Part shown: positions 1 through 7,860 of the stretch, piece by piece
Layout of the letters: each line of letters begins with the position of its first letter
Numbering within the stretch: the first letter of the stretch is position 1
From: a virus
Taxonomy: Duplodnaviria; Heunggongvirae; Uroviricota; Caudoviricetes
Length of the DNA stretch: 7,860 bases
IMG/VR virus record: IMGVR_UViG_3300029219_000192
Reading direction: 5' to 3' (one strand)
Position numbers and translations under genes: made by a program
The notes under the pieces: generated by a model
What the model was told of the DNA's origin: nothing
Seen by the model: the letters and a program-made list of their open reading frames with translations, nothing else
Database searches by the model: none

Positions 1-77
1 TAAGCAGAGTTTTTGAAATGTAAGGCCTTTGAATAAGACAAAAGGCTGCCTCATCGCTAACTTTGCAACAGTGCCCT
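1..77. repeat. Left copy of a perfect 77-bp inverted repeat (partner at 7762-7838); may extend beyond the window edge
   Basis: Bases 1-77 are the exact reverse complement of 7762-7838, checked base by base; first mismatch is at 78 vs 7761. The copy runs to window position 1, so its outer limit is unknown. Confidence 0.95.
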
Positions 78-225
78 TTAAAGCACGTTTTAATCCAGGT
101 CGGCCTGTCCTTATTCCGCTTAATTTATCTTCAAATATTTGTTCACATCCTGCACAAACAAGAGCGTTTCGTTGCAGGTCTGTATTCTGGTCATTTGTTG
201 ATACCCTTACATAGCCAATCAGCAC
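76..225 (-). pseudogene. pin: Serine DNA invertase (Pin/Gin/Hin family), N-terminal 50-codon fragment fused to the inverted-repeat sequence
   Basis: Minus-strand translation from GTG at 223-225, verified codon by codon: MLIGYVRVSTNDQNTDLQRNALVCAGCEQIFEDKLSGIRTGRPGLKRALK. This matches the invertase N-terminus including the catalytic-serine motif VRVSTNDQ; GGGAG lies 7 nt upstream of the start. Homology stops at codon 50 (76-78), exactly at the repeat boundary; the frame then reads GTVAKLAMRQPFVLFKGLTFQKLCL with no stop before the window edge. The catalytic-domain remainder and C-terminal DNA-binding domain are absent. Confidence 0.85.
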
Positions 226-279
226 GCTGAATCTCCCGTCCAAAAGCACAAATCATGCCATGCAGGCCAGAAACCGCCA

Positions 280-305
280 TTATCTAAAACCTCGGTTTAC
301 AGGAA
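280..305. other. pix/gix-like 26-bp crossover site for a Gin-family invertase
   Basis: TTATCTAAAACC-TC-GGTTTACAGGAA at 280-305 fits the gix/hix-type site (two 12-bp inverted half-sites around a 2-bp core; consensus recalled from memory, about one mismatch). It lies between the pin fragment and the tail-fibre cassette, the expected position. No second convincing copy was found in the window. Confidence 0.7.
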
Positions 306-329
306 ACGGTAAACAGGGCCAGGAACGCC

Positions 330-1292
330 GTGCAAAAGAATGGCGATACCTTGTCCGGTGGGCTTACTTTTGAAAACGACTCAATCCTTGCCTGGATTAG
401 AAATACTGACTGGGCAAAGATTGGTTTTAAAAATAATGCCGACAGCGACACTGATTCATACATGTGGTTTGAAACAGGCGACAACGGCAATGAATATTTC
501 AAATGGAGAAGCCGCCAGAGCACCACAACAAAAGACCTGATGACTCTTAAATGGGATGCTTTGTCTGTCCTTGTTAAAGCCCTTTTCAGCAGTGAAGTAA
601 AAATATCGACAGTCAATGCACTGAGGATATTTAATTCATCTTTTGGTGCTATTTTTCGTCGTTCTGAAGAATGCCTGCATATCATCCCTACACGAGAGAA
701 TGAGGGAGAAAATGGTGATATAGGGCCACTACGCCCCTTTACGCTTAATCTCAGAACTGGTCGGATAAGCATGGGGCATGGTCTTGATGTTACAGGGGAT
801 ATATTTGCAAACCGTTTTGCAATTAACAGTAGTACCGGCATGTGGATTCATATGCGTGACCAGAATGTTATTTTGGGACGCAATGCGGTATCCACCGATG
901 GTGCGCAGGCATTACTTCGTCAGGACCACGCTGATCGCAAATTTATGATTGGTGGACTGGGGAATAAGCAATTTGGCATCTACATGATTAATAACTCAAG
1001 GACAGCCAATGGCACCGATGGTCAGGCGTACATGGACAACAATGGCAACTGGCTTTGCGGTGCGCAAGTTATTCCCGGCAATTATGGTAATTTTGACTCA
1101 CGTTATGTGAGAGATGTCCGACTTGGTACACGTGTTGTTCAGACTATGCAAAAAGGCGTGATGTATGAGAAATCAGGTCATGCAATTACGGGGCTTGGCA
1201 TTATCGGTGCAGTTGATGGCGATGATCCGGCAGTATTCAGACCAATACAAAAATACATCAATGGCACATGGTATAACGTCGTACAGGTGTAA
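330..1292 (+). CDS. Side tail fibre protein, C-terminal variable (receptor-binding) cassette; lacks the constant N-terminal part
   Basis: 320-aa ORF from a GTG. The N-terminal region (QKNGDTLSGGLTFENDSILAWIRNTDWAKIGFKNN...YMWFETGDNGNEYFKWR) is the conserved segment found just after the crossover site in Stf-type fibres. The frame is open from 288, just past a TAA at 285-287 inside the pin-proximal pix half-site. It is followed 3 nt later by tfa. No constant tail-fibre region lies upstream. Confidence 0.8.
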   Translation: MQKNGDTLSGGLTFENDSILAWIRNTDWAKIGFKNNADSDTDSYMWFETGDNGNEYFKWRSRQSTTTKDLMTLKWDALSVLVKALFSSEVKISTVNALRIFNSSFGAIFRRSEECLHIIPTRENEGENGDIGPLRPFTLNLRTGRISMGHGLDVTGDIFANRFAINSSTGMWIHMRDQNVILGRNAVSTDGAQALLRQDHADRKFMIGGLGNKQFGIYMINNSRTANGTDGQAYMDNNGNWLCGAQVIPGNYGNFDSRYVRDVRLGTRVVQTMQKGVMYEKSGHAITGLGIIGAVDGDDPAVFRPIQKYINGTWYNVVQV

Positions 1293-1295
1293 TTT

Positions 1296-1823
1296 ATGCA
1301 GCATTTAAAAAATATTAAGTCTGGAAATCCAAAAACAAAAGAACAATATCAGCTAACAAAGAATTTTGATGTTATCTGGTTATGGTCCGAAGACGGAAAA
1401 AACTGGTATGAGGAAGTGAAAAACTTTCAGCCAGACACAATAAAGATTGTTTACGATGCAAATAATATTATTGTCGCCATCACCAAAGATGCCTCCACGC
1501 TTAACCCTGAAGGTTATAGCGTCGTTGAGGTTCCAGATATTACAGCCAACCGCTGCGCTGATGATTCCAGTAAGTGGATGTTTAGGGACGGAGCTGTGGT
1601 TAAACGGATTTATACGGCAGACGAGCAACAACAACAGGCCGAATCACAAAAGGCCGCATTGCTTTCCGAAGCTGAATCAGTCATCCAACCGCTGGAACGC
1701 GCTGTCAGGCTGAATATGGCAACAGACGAGGAACGCACACGACTGGAAGCATGGGAACGCTACAGTGTTCTGGTCAGCCGTGTGGATACGGCAAATCCTG
1801 AATGGCCACAAAAACCAGAGTAA
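1296..1823 (+). CDS. tfa: Tail fibre assembly protein (lambda Tfa family)
   Basis: 175-aa ORF starting 3 nt after the tail-fibre stop. The C-terminal region ([34 protein letters not shown]) closely resembles the lambda Tfa C-terminus (EAW..Y.VL..RVDT...EWP). Confidence 0.85.
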
Positions 1824-1826
1824 AAA

Positions 1827-2258
1827 TTAAGGCCCGATACCGGGCAAAACATCCGTCAACAGTTCATCAATTTCTGTCGGGCCGAAGCCTGTCAGGGAGA
1901 CATCAAAATCAGCATTGATTAGGTCCGACAGCTCCATCCGCAACAGATCTTCATCCCAGCCAGCATTCATCGGTAGGCGATTATCTGCCAGGCGGTACGC
2001 CTTTTTCTGCTCATCCGTCAGGCCAGACAGAACAATGACCGGAACAGAATCCATTTTGAGCATTTCAGCCGCCATAACACGACCGTGACCCGCAATAATT
2101 TCGCCCTTTTCGTCAATCAGCACCGGATTAGTCCAGCCGAATTGCTTAATACTTTCTACCAGTTGTGCCACCTGCTCAGTACTGTGCGTCCTGGCGTTGT
2201 GCGCATACGGTGACAATTCTTGTAATGGGCGATAGACTATCTTTAATTTCTCGCTCAT
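1827..2258 (-). CDS. ParB-like nuclease-domain protein (ynaK-like by position next to trkG)
   Basis: 143-aa ORF with an AAGG RBS. The N-terminal region (PLQELSPYAHNARTHSTEQVAQLVESIKQFGWTNPVLI) resembles ParB/sulfiredoxin-type domains. It sits directly downstream of trkG, as ynaK does in the Rac prophage. Its stop codon is 3 nt from the convergent tfa stop. Confidence 0.6.
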   Translation of the reverse strand: MSEKLKIVYRPLQELSPYAHNARTHSTEQVAQLVESIKQFGWTNPVLIDEKGEIIAGHGRVMAAEMLKMDSVPVIVLSGLTDEQKKAYRLADNRLPMNAGWDEDLLRMELSDLINADFDVSLTGFGPTEIDELLTDVLPGIGP

Positions 2259-2395
2259 ACAGCCTTGCTTTATGAATAAAACGCACCCCAGCAGCCAGTG
2301 CTACTGGGGGCGGAGGTGTTGCTGGTAAAGTTAGGTATTGGATCAATGAGTGAGTCAATATAATATTAAACTCACAATTATAAATCAGCCATATA

Positions 2396-3853
2396 TTAGG
2401 AGCGCCAAAAAAAACCTGAAAACAATATAATAACAGGATAAATTTCAAGGCGACCAAGAATCATAGCTATGCACATTAAATATTTTGCAATGTCATTAAG
2501 CACTCCGAATGACGATGCAGTAGCCCCAAAACCTAATCCCATATTATTAATACATGCAGCCACTGTTGCAAATGATGTAAGAAAATCATATCCCATACCA
2601 TTTAACACCAGTATAAAAAACACCGTGAAGAGAGTATAAAGAAAAAAGAAACTCCATACAGACCTCATTACACGATCTGTAACTATCTTCCCTCCTACAT
2701 TTACACTCAACAACGCTCTGGGATGAGAAAGCTGATTTATCTCGTGTTTGCTTTGTTTGAAAAGTATAAGAAATCGAAGTGACTTAATTCCACCACAAGT
2801 TGAACCTATACATCCCCCAAAGAAACTTGACGACAGCAAAAACACTATCGTGTGCGTGGGCCAGTTTGCATAATCCTGCGTAGCTAAACCATTATCAGTG
2901 AGCATGGAGCTGGCAAGAAAAAACGAATGAATAAAACTTCCATGCAAGTCATACATACCTATATGCCAGACCTGGAAAGAGGTAACAATGATCACCCCTA
3001 AGGCTATTAACAGAAAGAAACGAAGTTCAATATCTCTGATTAAAGGTTTTATCGTTTTCCTGCTAATAACAATATACCAAAGAGTGAAGTTGAAAGCCGA
3101 TAGCAGGGAAAAAGAACCAGCCACCAGCTCAACCAAATAGTTATTAAAATATCCGATACTCTCGCTATGAGTTGAGAAACCACCAAGCGAAACTGTGGAA
3201 ATCCCGTGACAAATAGCATCAAACAAAGGCATTCCTGCAAGTCTATAACAGACAATACAAGCAATACCTAATAAAGAATAAGTTATCCACAGTGTCCGTG
3301 ACGTATCGGCCAGGCGGGGAGTGAGTTTGTCATCCTTAAATGGCCCCGGCATTTCTGACTGATAAAGCTTTGTACCACCAATACCCAATAATGGCAATAC
3401 AGCAACCGCCAGAACAATAACTCCTAAACCACCTATAAAATTTAACTGTGACCGATAGTACAAATATGCCCGAGGTAATGAACTAACATCATCAATTACA
3501 GTTGCTCCTGTTGTTGTTATTCCAGAAACCCCTTCAAACAGAGCATCAATGAACGTTAAATTAAGTTCTGAGTCAATCCATAAAGGGAATGCACTAATAA
3601 CAGAAAACAAAATCCAAAACATTACAATTATAATAAACCCATCACGGGTACGTAATTGAATGCCAGATTTCTTAGTTGTATACCACGCTCCGCCACCAAT
3701 GCAAAAAAATATAACGAAAGTTATAAAGAAAACGAACAGGCTTTTTTCTTTATAAAACAATGCTACAACCATTGGTGGCAACATTGAAAGACTATAGAGC
3801 CAAACCAGGAACCCACACATATGAGTAACAACTCTTACATGAGATGTATTCAT
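2396..3853 (-). CDS. trkG: Trk-system potassium uptake protein, TrkH/TrkG family membrane subunit (prophage-borne)
   Basis: Long, very hydrophobic ORF with repeated glycine-rich pore-loop-like segments (ITTTGATV, FIGGLGVIVL, STVSLGGFSTH, FGGCIGSTCGGIK). It is strikingly AT-rich compared with its neighbours and lies beside Rz/Rz1, as in Rac. The start is taken as the ATG at 3851-3853 (MNTSHVRV..., 485 aa); the ORF-track start at 3871 is a TTG. Confidence 0.85.
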   Translation of the reverse strand: MNTSHVRVVTHMCGFLVWLYSLSMLPPMVVALFYKEKSLFVFFITFVIFFCIGGGAWYTTKKSGIQLRTRDGFIIIVMFWILFSVISAFPLWIDSELNLTFIDALFEGVSGITTTGATVIDDVSSLPRAYLYYRSQLNFIGGLGVIVLAVAVLPLLGIGGTKLYQSEMPGPFKDDKLTPRLADTSRTLWITYSLLGIACIVCYRLAGMPLFDAICHGISTVSLGGFSTHSESIGYFNNYLVELVAGSFSLLSAFNFTLWYIVISRKTIKPLIRDIELRFFLLIALGVIIVTSFQVWHIGMYDLHGSFIHSFFLASSMLTDNGLATQDYANWPTHTIVFLLSSSFFGGCIGSTCGGIKSLRFLILFKQSKHEINQLSHPRALLSVNVGGKIVTDRVMRSVWSFFFLYTLFTVFFILVLNGMGYDFLTSFATVAACINNMGLGFGATASSFGVLNDIAKYLMCIAMILGRLEIYPVIILFSGFFWRS

Positions 3854-3990
3854 ATCTAAATATTCTTTCAATTATAACCACCTTGCTGCAATATTATGAT
3901 TATACTGTATAAAATTTAACTCCTCTTAGATCTTACTTCACTGTTCCTTATGAAACAATCATCAAAATGAATCATATTGTAGTTAAGATT

Positions 3991-4455
3991 TTACTTTAAA
4001 CACTGCTCGGTTATGTATTGCTGAGCACCTTCAAGTTGGGCCTGCATCATTACCAGTCGTTCCCGGAGGGTGAAATAATCCCGTTCAGCGGTGTCTGCCA
4101 GTCGGGGGGAGGCTGCATTATCCACGCCGGAGGCGGTGGTGGCTTCACGCACTGACTGACAGACTGCTTTGATGTGCAACCGACGACGACCAGCGGCAAC
4201 ATCATCACGCAGAGCATCATTTTCAGCTTTCGCATCAGCTAACTCCTTCGTGTATTTTGCATCGAGCGCAGCAACATCACGCTGACGCATCTGCATGTCA
4301 GTAATTGCCGCGTTCGCCAGCTTCAGTTCTCTGGCATTTTTGTCGCGCTGGGCTTTGTAGGTAATGGCGTTATCACGGTAATGATTAACAGCCCATGACA
4401 GGCAGACGATGATGCAGATAACCAGAGCGGAGATAATCGCGGTTACCCTGCTCAT
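3991..4455 (-). CDS. Rz: Rz i-spanin (inner-membrane lysis protein)
   Basis: Near-identical to lambda Rz along its length ([68 protein letters not shown]...). The start is taken as the ATG at 4453-4455, which overlaps the upstream endolysin-remnant stop as ATGA; the track start at 4467 is a GTG. Confidence 0.9.
4050..4235 (-). CDS. Rz1: Rz1 o-spanin (outer-membrane lipoprotein), embedded in Rz in the +1 frame
   Basis: 61-aa ORF wholly inside Rz. It has a lipoprotein signal with lipobox LVVVGC and a proline-rich region ([24 protein letters not shown]), matching lambda Rz1. Confidence 0.85.
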
Positions 4456-4676
4456 TGTTGCCCCCACAAACAGACCTCACGCTCAATCTCACGACGAGTC
4501 ATCAGGCCTTTCCATTGCTTACCGCCAGCGTATGCCCAGCGACGTAGCTGGTCACATGCGCCCTTGATATCGCCCTGGTTTATTTTGCGAAGAAGAGTAG
4601 ATGTTCTGAAATTGCCTGCGCCCACGTTATAGACGAACGAGTAAAGAGCGCCGCGCGTTGTTTCCGGTAGGTGCGA
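4452..4676 (-). pseudogene. Phage endolysin (lysozyme, R21/RrrD-like) 3' remnant: about the last 70 codons only
   Basis: Minus-strand frame ending at the TGA that overlaps the Rz start: ...[71 protein letters not shown]. This matches the C-terminus of lambdoid lysozymes (from memory). The frame is closed upstream by a TGA (plus 4677-4679) with no start codon; the N-terminal catalytic part and the holin gene are absent. Confidence 0.6.
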
Positions 4677-4794
4677 TCACTTTCGTCTACTCCGTTACAA
4701 AGCGAGGCTGGGTATTTCCCGGCCTTTCTGTTATCAGAAATCCCCTGAAAGCACAGCGGCTGGCTGAGGAGATAAATAATAAACGGGGGGCTGT

Positions 4795-4986
4795 ATGCAC
4801 AAAGCATCTCCTGTTGAGTTAAGAACGTGTATCGAGATGGCACATAGCCTCGCTCAAATTGGAGTCAGGTTTGTGCCAATACCAGTAGAAACAGACGAAG
4901 AATTTCATACGTTAGCCGCATCCCTTTCACAAAAGCTGGAAATGATGGTGGCGAAAGCAGAAGCAGATGAGAGAGACCAGGTATGA
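4795..4986 (+). CDS. Small early-region protein, YdfA-like (63 aa)
   Basis: ATG ORF with a G-rich RBS, MHKASPVELRTCIEMAHSLAQIGVRFVPIPVETDEEFHTLAASLSQKLEMMVAKAEADERDQV. Its stop overlaps the next start as ATGA. It resembles, from memory, the first gene of the ydfA-ydfB-ydfC trio of the Qin prophage. Confidence 0.5.
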   Translation: MHKASPVELRTCIEMAHSLAQIGVRFVPIPVETDEEFHTLAASLSQKLEMMVAKAEADERDQV

Positions 4987-5066
4987 CAACCACTGAATGC
5001 ATTTTTCTGGCAGCGGGCTTCATATTCTGTGTGCTTATGCTTGCCGACATGGGGCTTGTTCAATGA
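4983..5066 (+). CDS. Small hydrophobic peptide, YdfB-like (27 aa)
   Basis: MTTTECIFLAAGFIFCVLMLADMGLVQ, a single predicted transmembrane helix. ATGA overlaps with both neighbours suggest translational coupling. The alternative reading is that the next gene starts at 4997 in another frame (93-aa track ORF). Confidence 0.35.
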   Translation: MTTTECIFLAAGFIFCVLMLADMGLVQ

Positions 5067-5278
5067 CACCTCAGCAAGAAAACGCCCTTCGCAGCATTGC
5101 CCGTCAGGCTAATTCTGAAATCAAAAAAGCCAGACAGCAGTTTCCGGATAAAAACGTCGATGACATTTGCCGTAGCGTACTGAAGAAGCACCGCGAAACG
5201 GTAACGCTGATGGGATTCACACCGACTCATTTAAGCCTGGCAATCGGCATGTTAAACGGCGTCTTTAAGGAACGATGA
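5063..5278 (+). CDS. Small early-region protein, YdfC-like (71 aa)
   Basis: MTPQQENALRSIARQANSEIKKARQQFPDKNVDDICRSVLKKHRETVTLMGFTPTHLSLAIGMLNGVFKER. The start overlaps the upstream stop as ATGA. Same frame as the 93-aa track ORF (4997-5278), but the coupled start at 5063 is preferred. Confidence 0.5.
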   Translation: MTPQQENALRSIARQANSEIKKARQQFPDKNVDDICRSVLKKHRETVTLMGFTPTHLSLAIGMLNGVFKER

Positions 5279-5299
5279 ACATGAAAAGCAAAATTATCA

Positions 5300-5324
5300 G
5301 GGAGCTACAGGCTCCTTTTTTATT
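5300..5324 (+). terminator. Short GC hairpin plus T-tract (weak intrinsic terminator or small-RNA 3' end)
   Basis: GGAGC (5301-5305) pairs with GCTCC (5311-5315) around a 5-nt loop, followed by TTTTTTATT. The stem is only 5 bp, so confidence is low. Confidence 0.25.
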
Positions 5325-5376
5325 GCTCGCATTTACCCCCAAGCGTATTAACCAACAATTCAGGGATTAATGGAAG

Positions 5377-5598
5377 ATGGCAGACATCATTGATTCAGCA
5401 TCAGAAATTGAAGAATTACAGCGCAACACAGCAATAAAAATGCGCCGCCTGAACCACCAGGCTGTATCTGCCACTCATTGTTGTGAGTGTGGCGATCCCA
5501 TAGATGAGCTAAGACGCCTGGCCGTTCAGGGTTGTCGGACTTGTGCAAGTTGCCAGGAAGATCTGGAGCTTATCAGTAAACAGAGAGGTTCGAAGTGA
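5377..5598 (+). CDS. DksA/TraR-family C4-type zinc-finger protein (phage TraR-like)
   Basis: 73-aa ORF with four-cysteine motif ...HCCECGDPIDELRRLAVQGCRTCASCQ... Size and motif are typical of TraR-like proteins in lambdoid early regions. Confidence 0.8.
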   Translation: MADIIDSASEIEELQRNTAIKMRRLNHQAVSATHCCECGDPIDELRRLAVQGCRTCASCQEDLELISKQRGSK

Positions 5599-5846
5599 GC
5601 GTAATTCACTCTCAGGCACTGCGTGAAGCGGCAGAGCAGGCAATGCCTGACAACTGGGGATTTGACGCGGACCTTTTCCATGAGCTGGTAACACCATCGA
5701 TTGTGCTGACACTGCTGGATGAACGGGAAAGAAACCAGCAATACATCAAACGCCGCGACCAGGAGAACGAGGATATTGCGCTAACGGTGGGGAAACTGCG
5801 TGTTGAGCTGGAGACAGCAAAAATCAAAACTCAACGAGCAGCGTGA
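5595..5846 (+). CDS. Ead/Ea22-like early protein, N-terminal part; ORF closed by TGA but coding-like frame continues to 6008
   Basis: GTG start overlapping the TraR-like stop (GTGA). MSVIHSQALREAAEQAMPDNWGFDADLFHELVTPSIVLTLLDERERNQQYIKRRDQENEDIALTVGKLRVELETAKIKTQRAA resembles Ea22-family N-termini (from memory). After the TGA at 5844-5846 the same frame stays open for 53 more codons. Confidence 0.45.
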   Translation: MSVIHSQALREAAEQAMPDNWGFDADLFHELVTPSIVLTLLDERERNQQYIKRRDQENEDIALTVGKLRVELETAKIKTQRAA

Positions 5847-6144
5847 GTAGAAGGTGTTATCTCGGATGGAAGTAAGCGTATTGCTGAACTGGAGGCCTGG
5901 GTTGAATACACAAGAGCTGCATACGTAAGAGCAAAAGACAAGGGAGATTTGATCAGAGTTATTACCCGCCAACCAACGGGATTTTACGCTTACGTACCAT
6001 GTAATTAGGAATCCTTGAAGTGGCAGCCTAACTGCGGATACACTGAAATGGCGATTTGGTAACATGTTTCGCACAAGGCTGTTACTACACTTAGAGATAA
6101 TCAGCCATGATTAAACGCTTTGTAAAAAGTAAAAGGAAATTACA

Positions 6145-6759
6145 ATGAAAAAATCAATACTAATTTTAGGGCTTACGTTAATTGTCTCATCTCAAATACC
6201 ATCGGCAATGGCAAAAAATGAATCAAAACTATGGGTTGTTGTTGATCGAACGGAAAGACATACCTGCCCTTCAAGTAAATGTGGAGTGGCTGGGAAACTA
6301 TTTTTCAGGGAAGGCGTAGATTTTCTAGAAAAAAAAGGTGAATGGGTTCGTATAACTGAGCCATATTCAGCCTCATGTGTTGGAGGGGAAAGCGAATATA
6401 TTAAAGAAGGTAATAAATCCTGCACAAGAAAAAATGGAATCGTTAATGGCAAGTTTTCAGAATGGGTTAAACTTAGTGATCTTAGCAGTGAAAGGCCATC
6501 AGATCCTGCTGAAAATGCGAGCGGAGATGATACTTTAATCAAAGGATCTGATGACTACCGTATATACAAAAAAGAGTTTTCTTCGGCAGCTAGGAAGTTA
6601 ATAAATGAAGGGGTCTGCACGGAAAGCGATTTTAAGGAAATCGGAGGGTGGATGGCATCAAGCAATAAGGGTGAAAACATCTATTTCACATATTGCGGAG
6701 GAATGACGTTGTCGAACAGAATATACCTAGATGTTAAAAGTGGAAAGACTTTTAGATAA
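6145..6759 (+). CDS. Secreted (Sec signal peptide) cysteine-containing protein of unknown function; AT-rich cargo gene
   Basis: 204-aa ORF with an AAGGAA RBS. N-terminal MKKSILILGLTLIVSSQIPSAMA-KNE is a typical signal peptide with an AxA cleavage site and no lipobox. Several Cys lie in the mature part. Composition is visibly AT-rich compared with flanking genes, and a strong terminator follows. Confidence 0.7.
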   Translation: MKKSILILGLTLIVSSQIPSAMAKNESKLWVVVDRTERHTCPSSKCGVAGKLFFREGVDFLEKKGEWVRITEPYSASCVGGESEYIKEGNKSCTRKNGIVNGKFSEWVKLSDLSSERPSDPAENASGDDTLIKGSDDYRIYKKEFSSAARKLINEGVCTESDFKEIGGWMASSNKGENIYFTYCGGMTLSNRIYLDVKSGKTFR

Positions 6760-6829
6760 TATGATATTACCAATGACAGTATTGATTTAATGCCTCCATA
6801 GAATTATCTCTAGGAAGTAGGTATAAGAA

Positions 6830-6866
6830 AAGCCCGCACAATGAGCTGCTGCGGGCTTTGTGTTAT
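6830..6866 (+). terminator. Rho-independent terminator downstream of the secreted-protein gene
   Basis: AAGCCCGCA (6830-6838) pairs with TGCGGGCTT (6850-6858) around an 11-nt loop, followed by TTTGTGTTATT. Confidence 0.7.
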
Positions 6867-6912
6867 TCGCCATATTTTATGAAGCAAATACGACACTATA
6901 GATAATTAAGCG

Positions 6913-7052
6913 TTGCTGGTTGTCGATTCCTCAATCACTCCTGTTGATGGCTCTCTTCTTGTATGTGCCATTGAAGGGGAATATCGCGTAAAAAGATACC
7001 GGAAGTATCCGCGCCGCCATGATTGTCTTTCTCCTGATGCAGGAAAAGCAGA
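6913..7052 (+). pseudogene. S24 peptidase (LexA/UmuD/cI-type) C-terminal-domain remnant
   Basis: LVVDSSITPVDGSLLVCAIEGEYRVKRY resembles the conserved core of the S24 autoproteolytic domain (compare UmuD LLIVDSAIT...VIAAVDGEFTVKKL). There is a stop codon 6 nt upstream of 6913, no catalytic-Ser region, and the downstream translation is not protein-like. The homologous core is roughly 6913-7000. Confidence 0.4.
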
Positions 7053-7391
7053 ATGGCTAAATCAGCAACAGAGCACAAAGCCGATCAGAGAGCCAAGCAA
7101 GCATCATCCGGTATGCGTAAGCTGGAGCTTGTACTTGATGCTCAGGAAATTGAAATGCTGGAGCGTAACTGTGCCACGCGTCGCTTCAGGCGTGCGCCTT
7201 GCGAGTTTGGTGAGTACATCGCGTTACTGAGCCGCCAGGATGATGCACGTGTGCGCTGGCGTATAAAATCGATCAGCAGAAAACGGTGCGGTAAGTGCGG
7301 CGAGAGAGTTCCTGTTAATTCATGCCCGTGTAATGGTGACTCACAATGCTGGGTGACCAAAGGCTGGCACGAAACAAAATTAATGATATAA
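7053..7391 (+). CDS. Hypothetical protein with C-terminal Cys cluster (putative zinc ribbon)
   Basis: 112-aa ATG ORF with an AGGA RBS. C-terminal C-x2-C-x8-C-x-C-x5-C (RCGKCGERVPVNSCPCNGDSQCW). No family recognised. Confidence 0.6.
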   Translation: MAKSATEHKADQRAKQASSGMRKLELVLDAQEIEMLERNCATRRFRRAPCEFGEYIALLSRQDDARVRWRIKSISRKRCGKCGERVPVNSCPCNGDSQCWVTKGWHETKLMI

Positions 7392-7397
7392 ATCTCT

Positions 7398-7409
7398 GTG
7401 ACATGTCAC
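7398..7409. promoter_or_regulatory. Perfect 12-bp palindrome GTGACATGTCAC between the two module genes (candidate protein-binding site)
   Basis: Exact dyad symmetry at 7398-7409, in the 28-bp gap immediately upstream of the RBS (GGAGG) of the 7420 gene. Confidence 0.3.
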
Positions 7410-7419
7410 GGAGGCGGCA

Positions 7420-7782
7420 ATGAAATTAGACCAGCAATATCTAAAAGATCTACTTATCGCATTCGAAAAAACTCGTGGCCCTGACACGATGCTTAGTGAA
7501 CTAGAGGATAATGGCTTTAATAGATATGACCAAGATTTTATTTTCCATATGCGATTATTATGTGACTACGAATTAATAGTCAGGGTTGATGGAAAACCTG
7601 GGTTCGGTCATATATTGTCCAAAGCGTTAGGGGAAGGTGTTGGATATAGTTGGATCGAAGTACCACTGAGGTTGACAGCAAGAGGGCATGATTTTATTGC
7701 TGACTTACGTCAAAAGGATGTCTGGCAAGCTATAAAAACAAACTTTAAGGATGAGGGAATTAGGGCACTGTTGCAAAGTTAG
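7420..7782 (+). CDS. Hypothetical protein (120 aa), AT-rich; its last 6 codons lie inside the right inverted repeat
   Basis: ATG ORF with a GGAGG RBS 7 nt upstream. Protein-like composition, no recognised motif. Visibly AT-rich. It ends ...EGIRALLQS* with the stop at 7780-7782. Confidence 0.65.
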   Translation: MKLDQQYLKDLLIAFEKTRGPDTMLSELEDNGFNRYDQDFIFHMRLLCDYELIVRVDGKPGFGHILSKALGEGVGYSWIEVPLRLTARGHDFIADLRQKDVWQAIKTNFKDEGIRALLQS

Positions 7783-7838
7783 CGATGAGGCAGCCTTTTG
7801 TCTTATTCAAAGGCCTTACATTTCAAAAACTCTGCTTA
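7762..7838. repeat. Right copy of the perfect 77-bp inverted repeat
   Basis: Exact reverse complement of 1-77. Covers the last 6 codons and stop of the 7420-7782 ORF plus 56 bp downstream. Confidence 0.95.
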
Positions 7839-7860
7839 CCAGGCGCATTTCGCCCAGGGG

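Follow-up and report, generated by a model that had tools for sequence, protein, structure and literature searches.

What does a small AT-rich gene for a predicted secreted protein do in a prophage, and how did it come to be there? The question is raised by a 7,860-nt stretch of tailed-phage DNA (Caudoviricetes), IMG/VR record IMGVR_UViG_3300029219_000192, called the window below at its full length. A reading made from the sequence alone had picked out positions 6145–6866 as a self-contained gene for an exported, cysteine-containing protein of no recognizable family, acquired horizontally as cargo and inserted in the early region. We propose that the gene is a moron, that is, a single cargo gene inserted among conserved phage genes, and that its product is an exported, disulfide-bonded protein combining an SH3b domain with a separate C-terminal domain, docked on the cell wall and protective for the carrier. 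We put the probability of this reading as a whole at roughly 0.5. In its structural description and in the description of the gene as cargo, taken alone, we have considerable confidence; the specific protective or inhibitory mechanism is a tentative proposal.

Predicted Export Signal and Coding Capacity of the Gene

The open reading frame (ORF; 6145–6759, plus strand) begins with ATG and encodes 204 amino acids (aa); it belongs to the NCBI WP_000748282/WP_000748281 family and to PHROG 8310. A Shine–Dalgarno sequence, AAGGA (6133–6137, plus strand), is read from the sequence 7 nt 5′ of the ATG and is kept in a copy from Escherichia fergusonii, which carries a GTG start codon at the equivalent position. 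Residues 1–23, MKKSILILGLTLIVSSQIPSAMA (6145–6213, plus strand), followed by KNE, form a predicted Sec-type signal peptide of the signal peptidase I class, recognized by inspection and by comparison with the family. Inspection finds the charged n-region (K2 and K3), a hydrophobic core of 11–12 residues (SILILGLTLIV), within the 7–15 residues of a Sec h-region, and alanine as the small residue at both −3 and −1. Signal peptidase I is predicted to cut after A21-M22-A23, before K24. The segment has a predicted local distance difference test score (pLDDT) below 50 in the AlphaFold model, as expected for a signal peptide.

The mature protein has six cysteines, C41, C46, C78, C93, C158, and C184. 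Because the first of them is residue 41, the protein has no lipobox, and the Pfam lipoprotein profile LPAM_1 gives it 14.1 bits against a cut-off of 20 bits. The sequence-only reading had described just such an ORF, with an AxA cleavage site, several cysteines, no lipobox, and its own ribosome-binding site, and all of this is borne out.

It had also called the gene AT-richer than its neighbours, and the difference is clear: the G+C content (GC) is 38.0% in the gene, 44.2% in the rest of the window, and 48–52% in the immediate neighbours. The ratio of nonsynonymous to synonymous substitution rates (dN/dS) between the window ORF and the E. fergusonii copy is 0.075, and this comparison of two sequences indicates that the ORF is under purifying selection. 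The distribution across prophages, which the same reading had proposed to check, agrees with a real gene, since the ORF is conserved in many prophages.

Domain Structure of the Protein

The AlphaFold model, built on a 40-sequence alignment, has a mean pLDDT of 90 and consists of a disordered signal peptide, a beta-barrel (residues 28–110), a short linker rich in proline and aspartate, and an alpha/beta domain (residues 125–204). The barrel (6226–6474, plus strand) is an SH3b domain, a bacterial SH3 domain of the cell-wall-binding type: as modelled, it has the SH3-like beta-barrel fold and superimposes on solved SH3b domains. Pfam SH3_3 (PF08239) matches residues 40–72 of the window protein at 16.2 bits (E = 0.012), below the gathering threshold of 27 bits; among relatives, 30 of 40 match at E ≤ 0.01, the best at 5.9 × 10−8. 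Residues 78–99 (6376–6441, plus strand) form an insertion in this domain that is apparently stapled by the C78–C93 pair, as judged from an alignment gap and from cysteine co-occurrence. A distant clade lacks the insertion, and the alignment gap in its members P0081 and P0082 spans residues 81–99.

The C-terminal domain (6517–6756, plus strand) has two helices and a three-stranded sheet in the model, contains the C158–C184 pair and the motifs SDD, GGW, and YFTYCGG, and is uncatalogued in every library searched. Its weak fold neighbours are small alpha+beta folds of the binding or inhibitor type, namely the MapZ ectodomain, cystatins, a BLIP-like protein, and VirB8. The whole protein matches PHROG 8310 over its full length (residues 1–204 against profile positions 1–204 of 204, E = 1.8 × 10−136). 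The earlier statement that no family could be recognized is accordingly right for the C-terminal domain and wrong for the protein as a whole and for its N-terminal half.

Searches of other resources added little to this assignment. The window protein has no match in NCBIfam, the BFVD collection of viral structures returned similarity at the level of the SH3b domain only, with nothing at E ≤ 0.001, and no literature on the family was found by accession, PHROG identifier, or terms for the domains and their context. A profile search of the PDB gave de novo designed TIM barrels at E of about 10−8, which we rejected as spurious because the score sums four repeated matches of 8–9 bits (individual E of about 20) to one helix motif.

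Envelope Signature of the Protein Family

An exhaustive profile search found 1,487 clusters (50% identity) at E ≤ 0.001, of which 170 fall at E ≤ 10−30; 83 relatives are close. The N-termini of 205 relatives were classed with a heuristic based on hydropathy and the lipobox. A hydrophobic signal was found in 113 and a lipobox in 27, and a further 51 carry a membrane-spanning segment behind an extended N-terminus, which in some cases probably reflects a mis-called start; the remainder comprises 12 without a hydrophobic segment and 2 that are short or partial. A signal peptide, lipobox, or membrane anchor is thus present in 191 of the 205 (about 93%), and at the family level an extracytoplasmic location is strongly supported by these sequences. 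The claim that the window protein is secreted gains its backing here, as envelope export.

The cysteines point in the same direction. C158 and C184 are always present together, and C41/C46 and C78/C93 each come and go as a pair, which is the pattern expected of three disulfides in an oxidizing compartment. All carrier genomes belong to double-membraned bacteria: Alpha-, Beta-, and Gammaproteobacteria, Sulfurimonas, Halarcobacter, Acidobacteriota, and Vampirovibrionales.

SH3b is not always present: Marinobacter, Rhizobium, and Methylobacillus have the C-terminal domain by itself in lipoproteins of 106–113 aa, and a membrane-anchored form exists too. The only additions seen at the N-terminus of the module are ankyrin repeats, a zinc ribbon with a membrane segment, a HIRAN domain, and extra SH3b repeats. 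Two glucosaminidases of about 1,300 aa (P0131 and P0218) were set aside as neither family members nor evidence of an enzymatic partner, because they match only through their 11–12 SH3b repeats.

Spread of the Moron Unit among Mobile Elements

Intact relatives have the gene in a lambda-like prophage integrated beside ybhC, on the strand transcribed from pL, in the order exo, TraR/DksA gene, truncated Ea22-like gene, SH3b gene, umuD-like fragment, 112-aa ORF, DUF2513, xis, and int; the isolated viable phage Chlobot has the identical arrangement. The placement in the early region fits these intact prophages, between exo and xis/int; in the window, the gene stands in a rearranged prophage remnant bracketed by the insertion sequence IS26.

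The unit at 6003–6866 is present in 133 of 5,426 complete E. coli genomes (2.5%) at 97–100% identity. The neighbouring TraR/DksA and Ea22 sequence occurs in many prophages that do not have the unit, and there the similarity ends near window position 5894 (H18–H31). A copy at 89% identity is carried by an 88-kb E. fergusonii plasmid that has a terminase gene and a phage repressor gene. Homology between the DNA of the window and of this phage-plasmid is confined to 6003–6761, from position 6003 to the stop codon, and the backbones are unrelated. It is this unit, shared by a lambda-like prophage and an unrelated phage-plasmid with a sharp boundary at 6003, that bears out the proposal of horizontally acquired cargo. 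The locus shows the features by which morons are recognized: patchy presence with sharp homology boundaries, its own terminator (with an interrupted T-tract), and a deviant base composition.

An IS1 element interrupts the unit in at least two E. coli strains, NZ_AP027713.1 (H90) and the widely used laboratory strain ATCC 8739, NZ_CP033020.1 (H109), which constitute natural knock-outs.

More distant copies, at 57–69% identity, are found in Pseudomonas islets, in an Aeromonas prophage, in an IS-rich region, and on a Citrobacter braakii plasmid. Those in Pseudomonas lie directly downstream of tyrosine integrases in small islets, and the Aeromonas copy stands between antiterminator and lysis genes annotated with Pfam. 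On the C. braakii plasmid, a 5.3-kb replicon of the ColRNAI (ColE1) type, the SH3b gene is apparently the only gene outside the backbone. Relatives occur at 51 viral loci of IMG/VR; about 37 are of the E. coli type, and the others are diverse and vary in their position in the phage genome.

Mobile copies, including the Pseudomonas, Aeromonas, and IS-rich loci, have a GC 4–16 points below that of their flanks; the chromosomal copies from Alphaproteobacteria, Vibrio, Shewanella, and Mitsuaria match their flanks, so that the offset is restricted to mobile copies. The pattern fits a gene that is indigenous in some lineages and reached E. coli, Pseudomonas, and Aeromonas by horizontal transfer.

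The Pseudomonas islets are about 6 kb long. Three of them adjoin nadB (L006, L007, and L012) and two of these also sdhE (L006 and L012, the latter at 5731–11886); a fourth, L002 (8402–14411), is located elsewhere, beside pyocin S and immunity genes. Throughout the islets (L002, L006/L007/L008, and L012) the SH3b gene recurs with a tyrosine integrase gene and with genes for unannotated products of about 130 and 337 aa, joined in some cases by a Bro-N gene. Several islets add proteins of about 105 and 174 aa, the 174-aa one matching a PHROG of phage transcriptional regulators.

Upstream Region and Terminator-Like Hairpin

The segment upstream of the ORF (6003–6144, plus strand) is a conserved noncoding region that travels with the gene, as its DNA homology with the E. 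fergusonii phage-plasmid indicates, and it probably contains the promoter and the 5′ untranslated region. Over these 142 bp the two sequences are 80.6% identical, and immediately to the left of 6003 the identity is 38%. Within the ORF, the window and the E. fergusonii copy agree at only about 53% of the synonymous sites; the identity of the upstream region exceeds this level, and the region is therefore under constraint.

A candidate promoter, TTGAAG (6015–6020) and TACACT (6039–6044) separated by an 18-nt spacer, matches at 8 of 12 positions. Both hexamers are invariant between the window and E. fergusonii and the spacer is variable, so we regard the pair as a weak candidate promoter. A search by eye for a promoter of the sigma-E type upstream of the gene gave no convincing match. 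An Rfam scan of 5850–6950 returned no hit.

Downstream of the ORF, fold energy and a simple scanner identify a terminator-like hairpin of the form AAAA-GCCCGCA...TGCGGGC-TTTGTGTTATT (6828–6868), in which GCCCGCA (6832–6838) pairs with TGCGGGC (6850–6856). The 61-nt stretch folds at −22 kcal/mol (z = −2.9). The scanner called the hairpin on the minus strand only, because of the long loop and the interrupted T-tract; since an A-run and a T-run flank it on opposite sides, it could act in both directions. The E. fergusonii copy has a homologous hairpin arm downstream, followed by a clean T-run. The predicted intrinsic terminator is present, therefore, and the adjective "strong" attached to it was somewhat generous in view of its loop and T-tract.

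Search for a Partner Gene

Clustering of the neighbours at 83 loci revealed no partner conserved across taxa and only lineage-specific synteny, the sole recurrent neighbour being the integrase of the Pseudomonas islets. The Vibrio neighbours were considered as partners and rejected, being the nap nitrate-reductase operon and plain synteny. An examination of the Citrobacter plasmid ORFs by eye, without a family scan, detected no bacteriocin or toxin and only mobilization-type and small membrane proteins. The neighbours in the Pseudomonas islands (208, 131, 336, and 174 aa) have no PADLOC match, and their sole PHROG match is a transcriptional regulator. The lack of a conserved partner and the solitary presence on a 5.3-kb plasmid suggest that the protein functions without a partner gene.

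Proposed Model and Alternative Explanations

According to our model, the unit, consisting of about 140 bp of upstream sequence, the ORF, and the terminator hairpin, is autonomous cargo that moves between mobile elements. The gene would be expressed in the prophage, and its product would be exported by Sec with removal of the 23-residue signal peptide and oxidized in the periplasm to three disulfides, C41–C46, C78–C93, and C158–C184. SH3b domains of this type anchor cell-wall enzymes to peptidoglycan, and the SH3b domain of the window protein may likewise dock it there. The C-terminal domain would then be a non-enzymatic binding module that shields the envelope of the carrier, perhaps by stopping phage tail lysins, secreted effectors, lysozymes, or other foreign proteins that degrade the wall, and the protein would do so alone, without a partner gene.

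Several observations weigh against this model. SH3b domains bind varied ligands. The window protein matches none of the PADLOC-DB 2.0 defence models, and no Pfam inhibitor or immunity family matches the protein or its C-terminal domain. The plus-strand promoter scan found no sigma-70 site at 9 or more of 12 positions, and the candidate described above went uncalled because it matches at only 8. The disruption by IS1 in at least two E. coli strains means that the gene is dispensable, and the chromosomal, non-mobile copies of Vibrio, Rhodobacterales, and Shewanella, with their host-like GC, suggest that the protein has a housekeeping task in the envelope there and not one dedicated to defence.

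One alternative is that the gene is a neutral passenger without present function in E. coli, hitch-hiking in the prophage block and, in the window, in the IS26 composite. The E. coli copies almost always lie in the same 2.5-kb block at 97–100% identity, which suggests one acquisition, and the neighbours in this block, the Ea22-like and umuD-like genes, are fragments; together with the two IS1 insertions, these facts are what such a passenger would lead us to expect. We nevertheless find this explanation unlikely, since the dN/dS of 0.075 and an upstream region conserved above the synonymous-site level speak of selection, the ORF is intact in nearly all 133 genomes next to decayed genes, and different mobile elements have captured the unit repeatedly and independently. 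Another alternative is a gene that serves the phage instead of the lysogen, as an accessory of lysis or infection in the lytic cycle that modulates, for example, the endolysin or spanin at the wall. Its position on the pL-transcribed strand of lambda-like phages would have it read through after induction, and some phage copies adjoin an endolysin-like ORF (L138, judged by eye from the N-terminal sequence) or follow lysis genes (L129, judged likewise), to which the Aeromonas copy between antiterminator and lysis genes can be added. The position in the phage genome is not conserved, however, and includes the opposite strand within head genes and sites beside integrases; many chromosomal and plasmid copies have no phage nearby, and the unit is found in only 2.5% of E. 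coli genomes, lambdoid prophages being far commoner. A lytic accessory role is for these reasons rather improbable.

An enzymatic role for the C-terminal domain, as a small wall-modifying or wall-cleaving enzyme targeted by SH3b in the manner of endolysins and NlpC/P60 peptidases, is improbable as well in our judgement; the SH3b domain itself is what such an enzyme would carry, and no enzyme domain was ever seen fused to the module among the extensions of the relatives. A host-directed virulence or colonization factor released from the cell seems the most remote of the explanations considered; virulence had been named by the sequence-only reading as a possible role, beside immunity and superinfection exclusion. 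A secreted protein rich in cysteines, carried by prophages in E. coli of human and animal origin, would suit such a factor, as would the ankyrin repeats fused to some relatives. The family is also found, however, in free-living marine, soil, and groundwater bacteria (Rhodobacterales, Vibrio, Shewanella, Acidobacteriota, and Sulfurimonas), many of its members are lipoproteins or membrane-anchored and would therefore be retained in the envelope, and neighbour clustering linked no secretion-system genes to it.

Composition of the Surrounding Prophage Remnant

The ends of the window, positions 1–75 and 7764–7860, are IS26 termini. The IS26 end GGCACTGTTGCAAA is found at 62–75 on the minus strand and at 7764–7777 on the plus strand; since the identical end faces inward on both sides, 76–7763 is an IS26-bracketed composite containing a prophage remnant. 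The composite is carried by E. coli chromosomes and by plasmids of 145–300 kb, and plasmids of Enterobacter, Citrobacter, and Klebsiella encode the SH3b protein at 100% identity.

Inside the composite, a rearrangement junction at about 4600 (about 4450–4850) fuses a Rac-like block head-to-head to a lambda-like left arm, and the entire immunity and replication region is missing between them. The Rac-like block contains a tail-fibre fragment, tfa, ynaK, trkG, Rz with nested Rz1 (3991–4467 and 4050–4235), and a fragment of the lysozyme gene rrrD without its N-terminus; DUF1317, DUF1382, and TraR-DksA genes stand on the lambda-like side of the junction. The trkG gene (2396–3871, minus strand) is a second low-GC block in the window, with 33–41% GC; it encodes a potassium transporter known as cargo of the Rac prophage, and it is annotated as frameshifted in plasmid pABWA45_1.

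Just downstream of the SH3b gene is a fragment of a umuD-like S24 peptidase gene, labelled as a DNA repair protein and lacking its C-terminus (6913–7020, plus strand). In the E. fergusonii phage-plasmid an S24 peptidase gene is complete and closely precedes the homologue, and no DNA similarity was detected between the S24 regions of the two. This recurrent association of an S24 gene with the SH3b unit may reflect how the unit moved.

The following ORF encodes the 112-aa hypothetical protein WP_001129736.1 (7053–7391, plus strand), which has a cysteine cluster near its C-terminus (CGKCGERVPVNSCPCNGDSQC) and always accompanies the SH3b gene in E. coli. The DUF2513 gene (7420–7782, plus strand) is cut by the right-hand IS26 and encodes 120 aa, against 142 aa in intact prophages (L001 and L015).

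Relation to Known Systems and Significance

The window protein is a member of PHROG 8310, an entry for which neither a function nor domains nor a structure are described; this analysis contributes the SH3b assignment, the recognition of a separate C-terminal domain, and the distribution outside phages. Compared with known SH3b proteins, such as lysostaphin, phage endolysins, and NlpC/P60 peptidases, the window protein has no catalytic domain, is predicted to reside in the periplasm of bacteria with two membranes instead of on a Gram-positive wall, and has a 19-residue insertion and two extra predicted disulfides. An SH3b domain joined to a small uncatalogued domain instead of a hydrolase, and placed by prediction in the periplasm of such bacteria, appears to be a new combination.

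The classical morons for envelope proteins include bor and lom of lambda, cor of phi80 and N15, llp of T5, and sp and imm of T4. The unit described here resembles them: it is a single gene with its own terminator, its composition stands out from that of the conserved phage genes around it, most related phages lack it, and its product is predicted to be exported to the envelope. Periplasmic inhibitors and immunity proteins, among them the lysozyme inhibitors Ivy, MliC/PliC, and PliG and the immunity proteins against wall-degrading effectors of the type VI secretion system (T6SS), offer a second comparison. The likeness to these is by analogy and concerns lifestyle only: they too are small and disulfide-bonded, occur in soluble and lipoprotein variants, and are encoded by single genes that are often orphans on mobile elements.

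A bolder proposal, more speculative than the protective mechanism itself, is that the C-terminal domain defines a new extracytoplasmic family of about 1,500 clusters whose mobile copies form a new class of single-gene envelope defence. The mobile carriers would then be phages, phage-plasmids, integrase islets, a ColE1-type plasmid, and IS26 composites on resistance plasmids, and a protein tethered to peptidoglycan would neutralize phage tail lysins, T6SS or bacteriocin effectors, or lysozymes, resulting in superinfection exclusion or orphan immunity.

Should the protective reading prove wrong, the locus is still a cleanly delimited moron with a structural annotation that improves on the label "hypothetical protein", a result that would not surprise phage biologists. 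If it is true, the unit would be a compact one-gene envelope shield that moves among phages, plasmids, and islands, that has already reached an IS26 unit in plasmids of several Enterobacteriaceae species, and that would give a function to a widespread, so far uncatalogued periplasmic domain.
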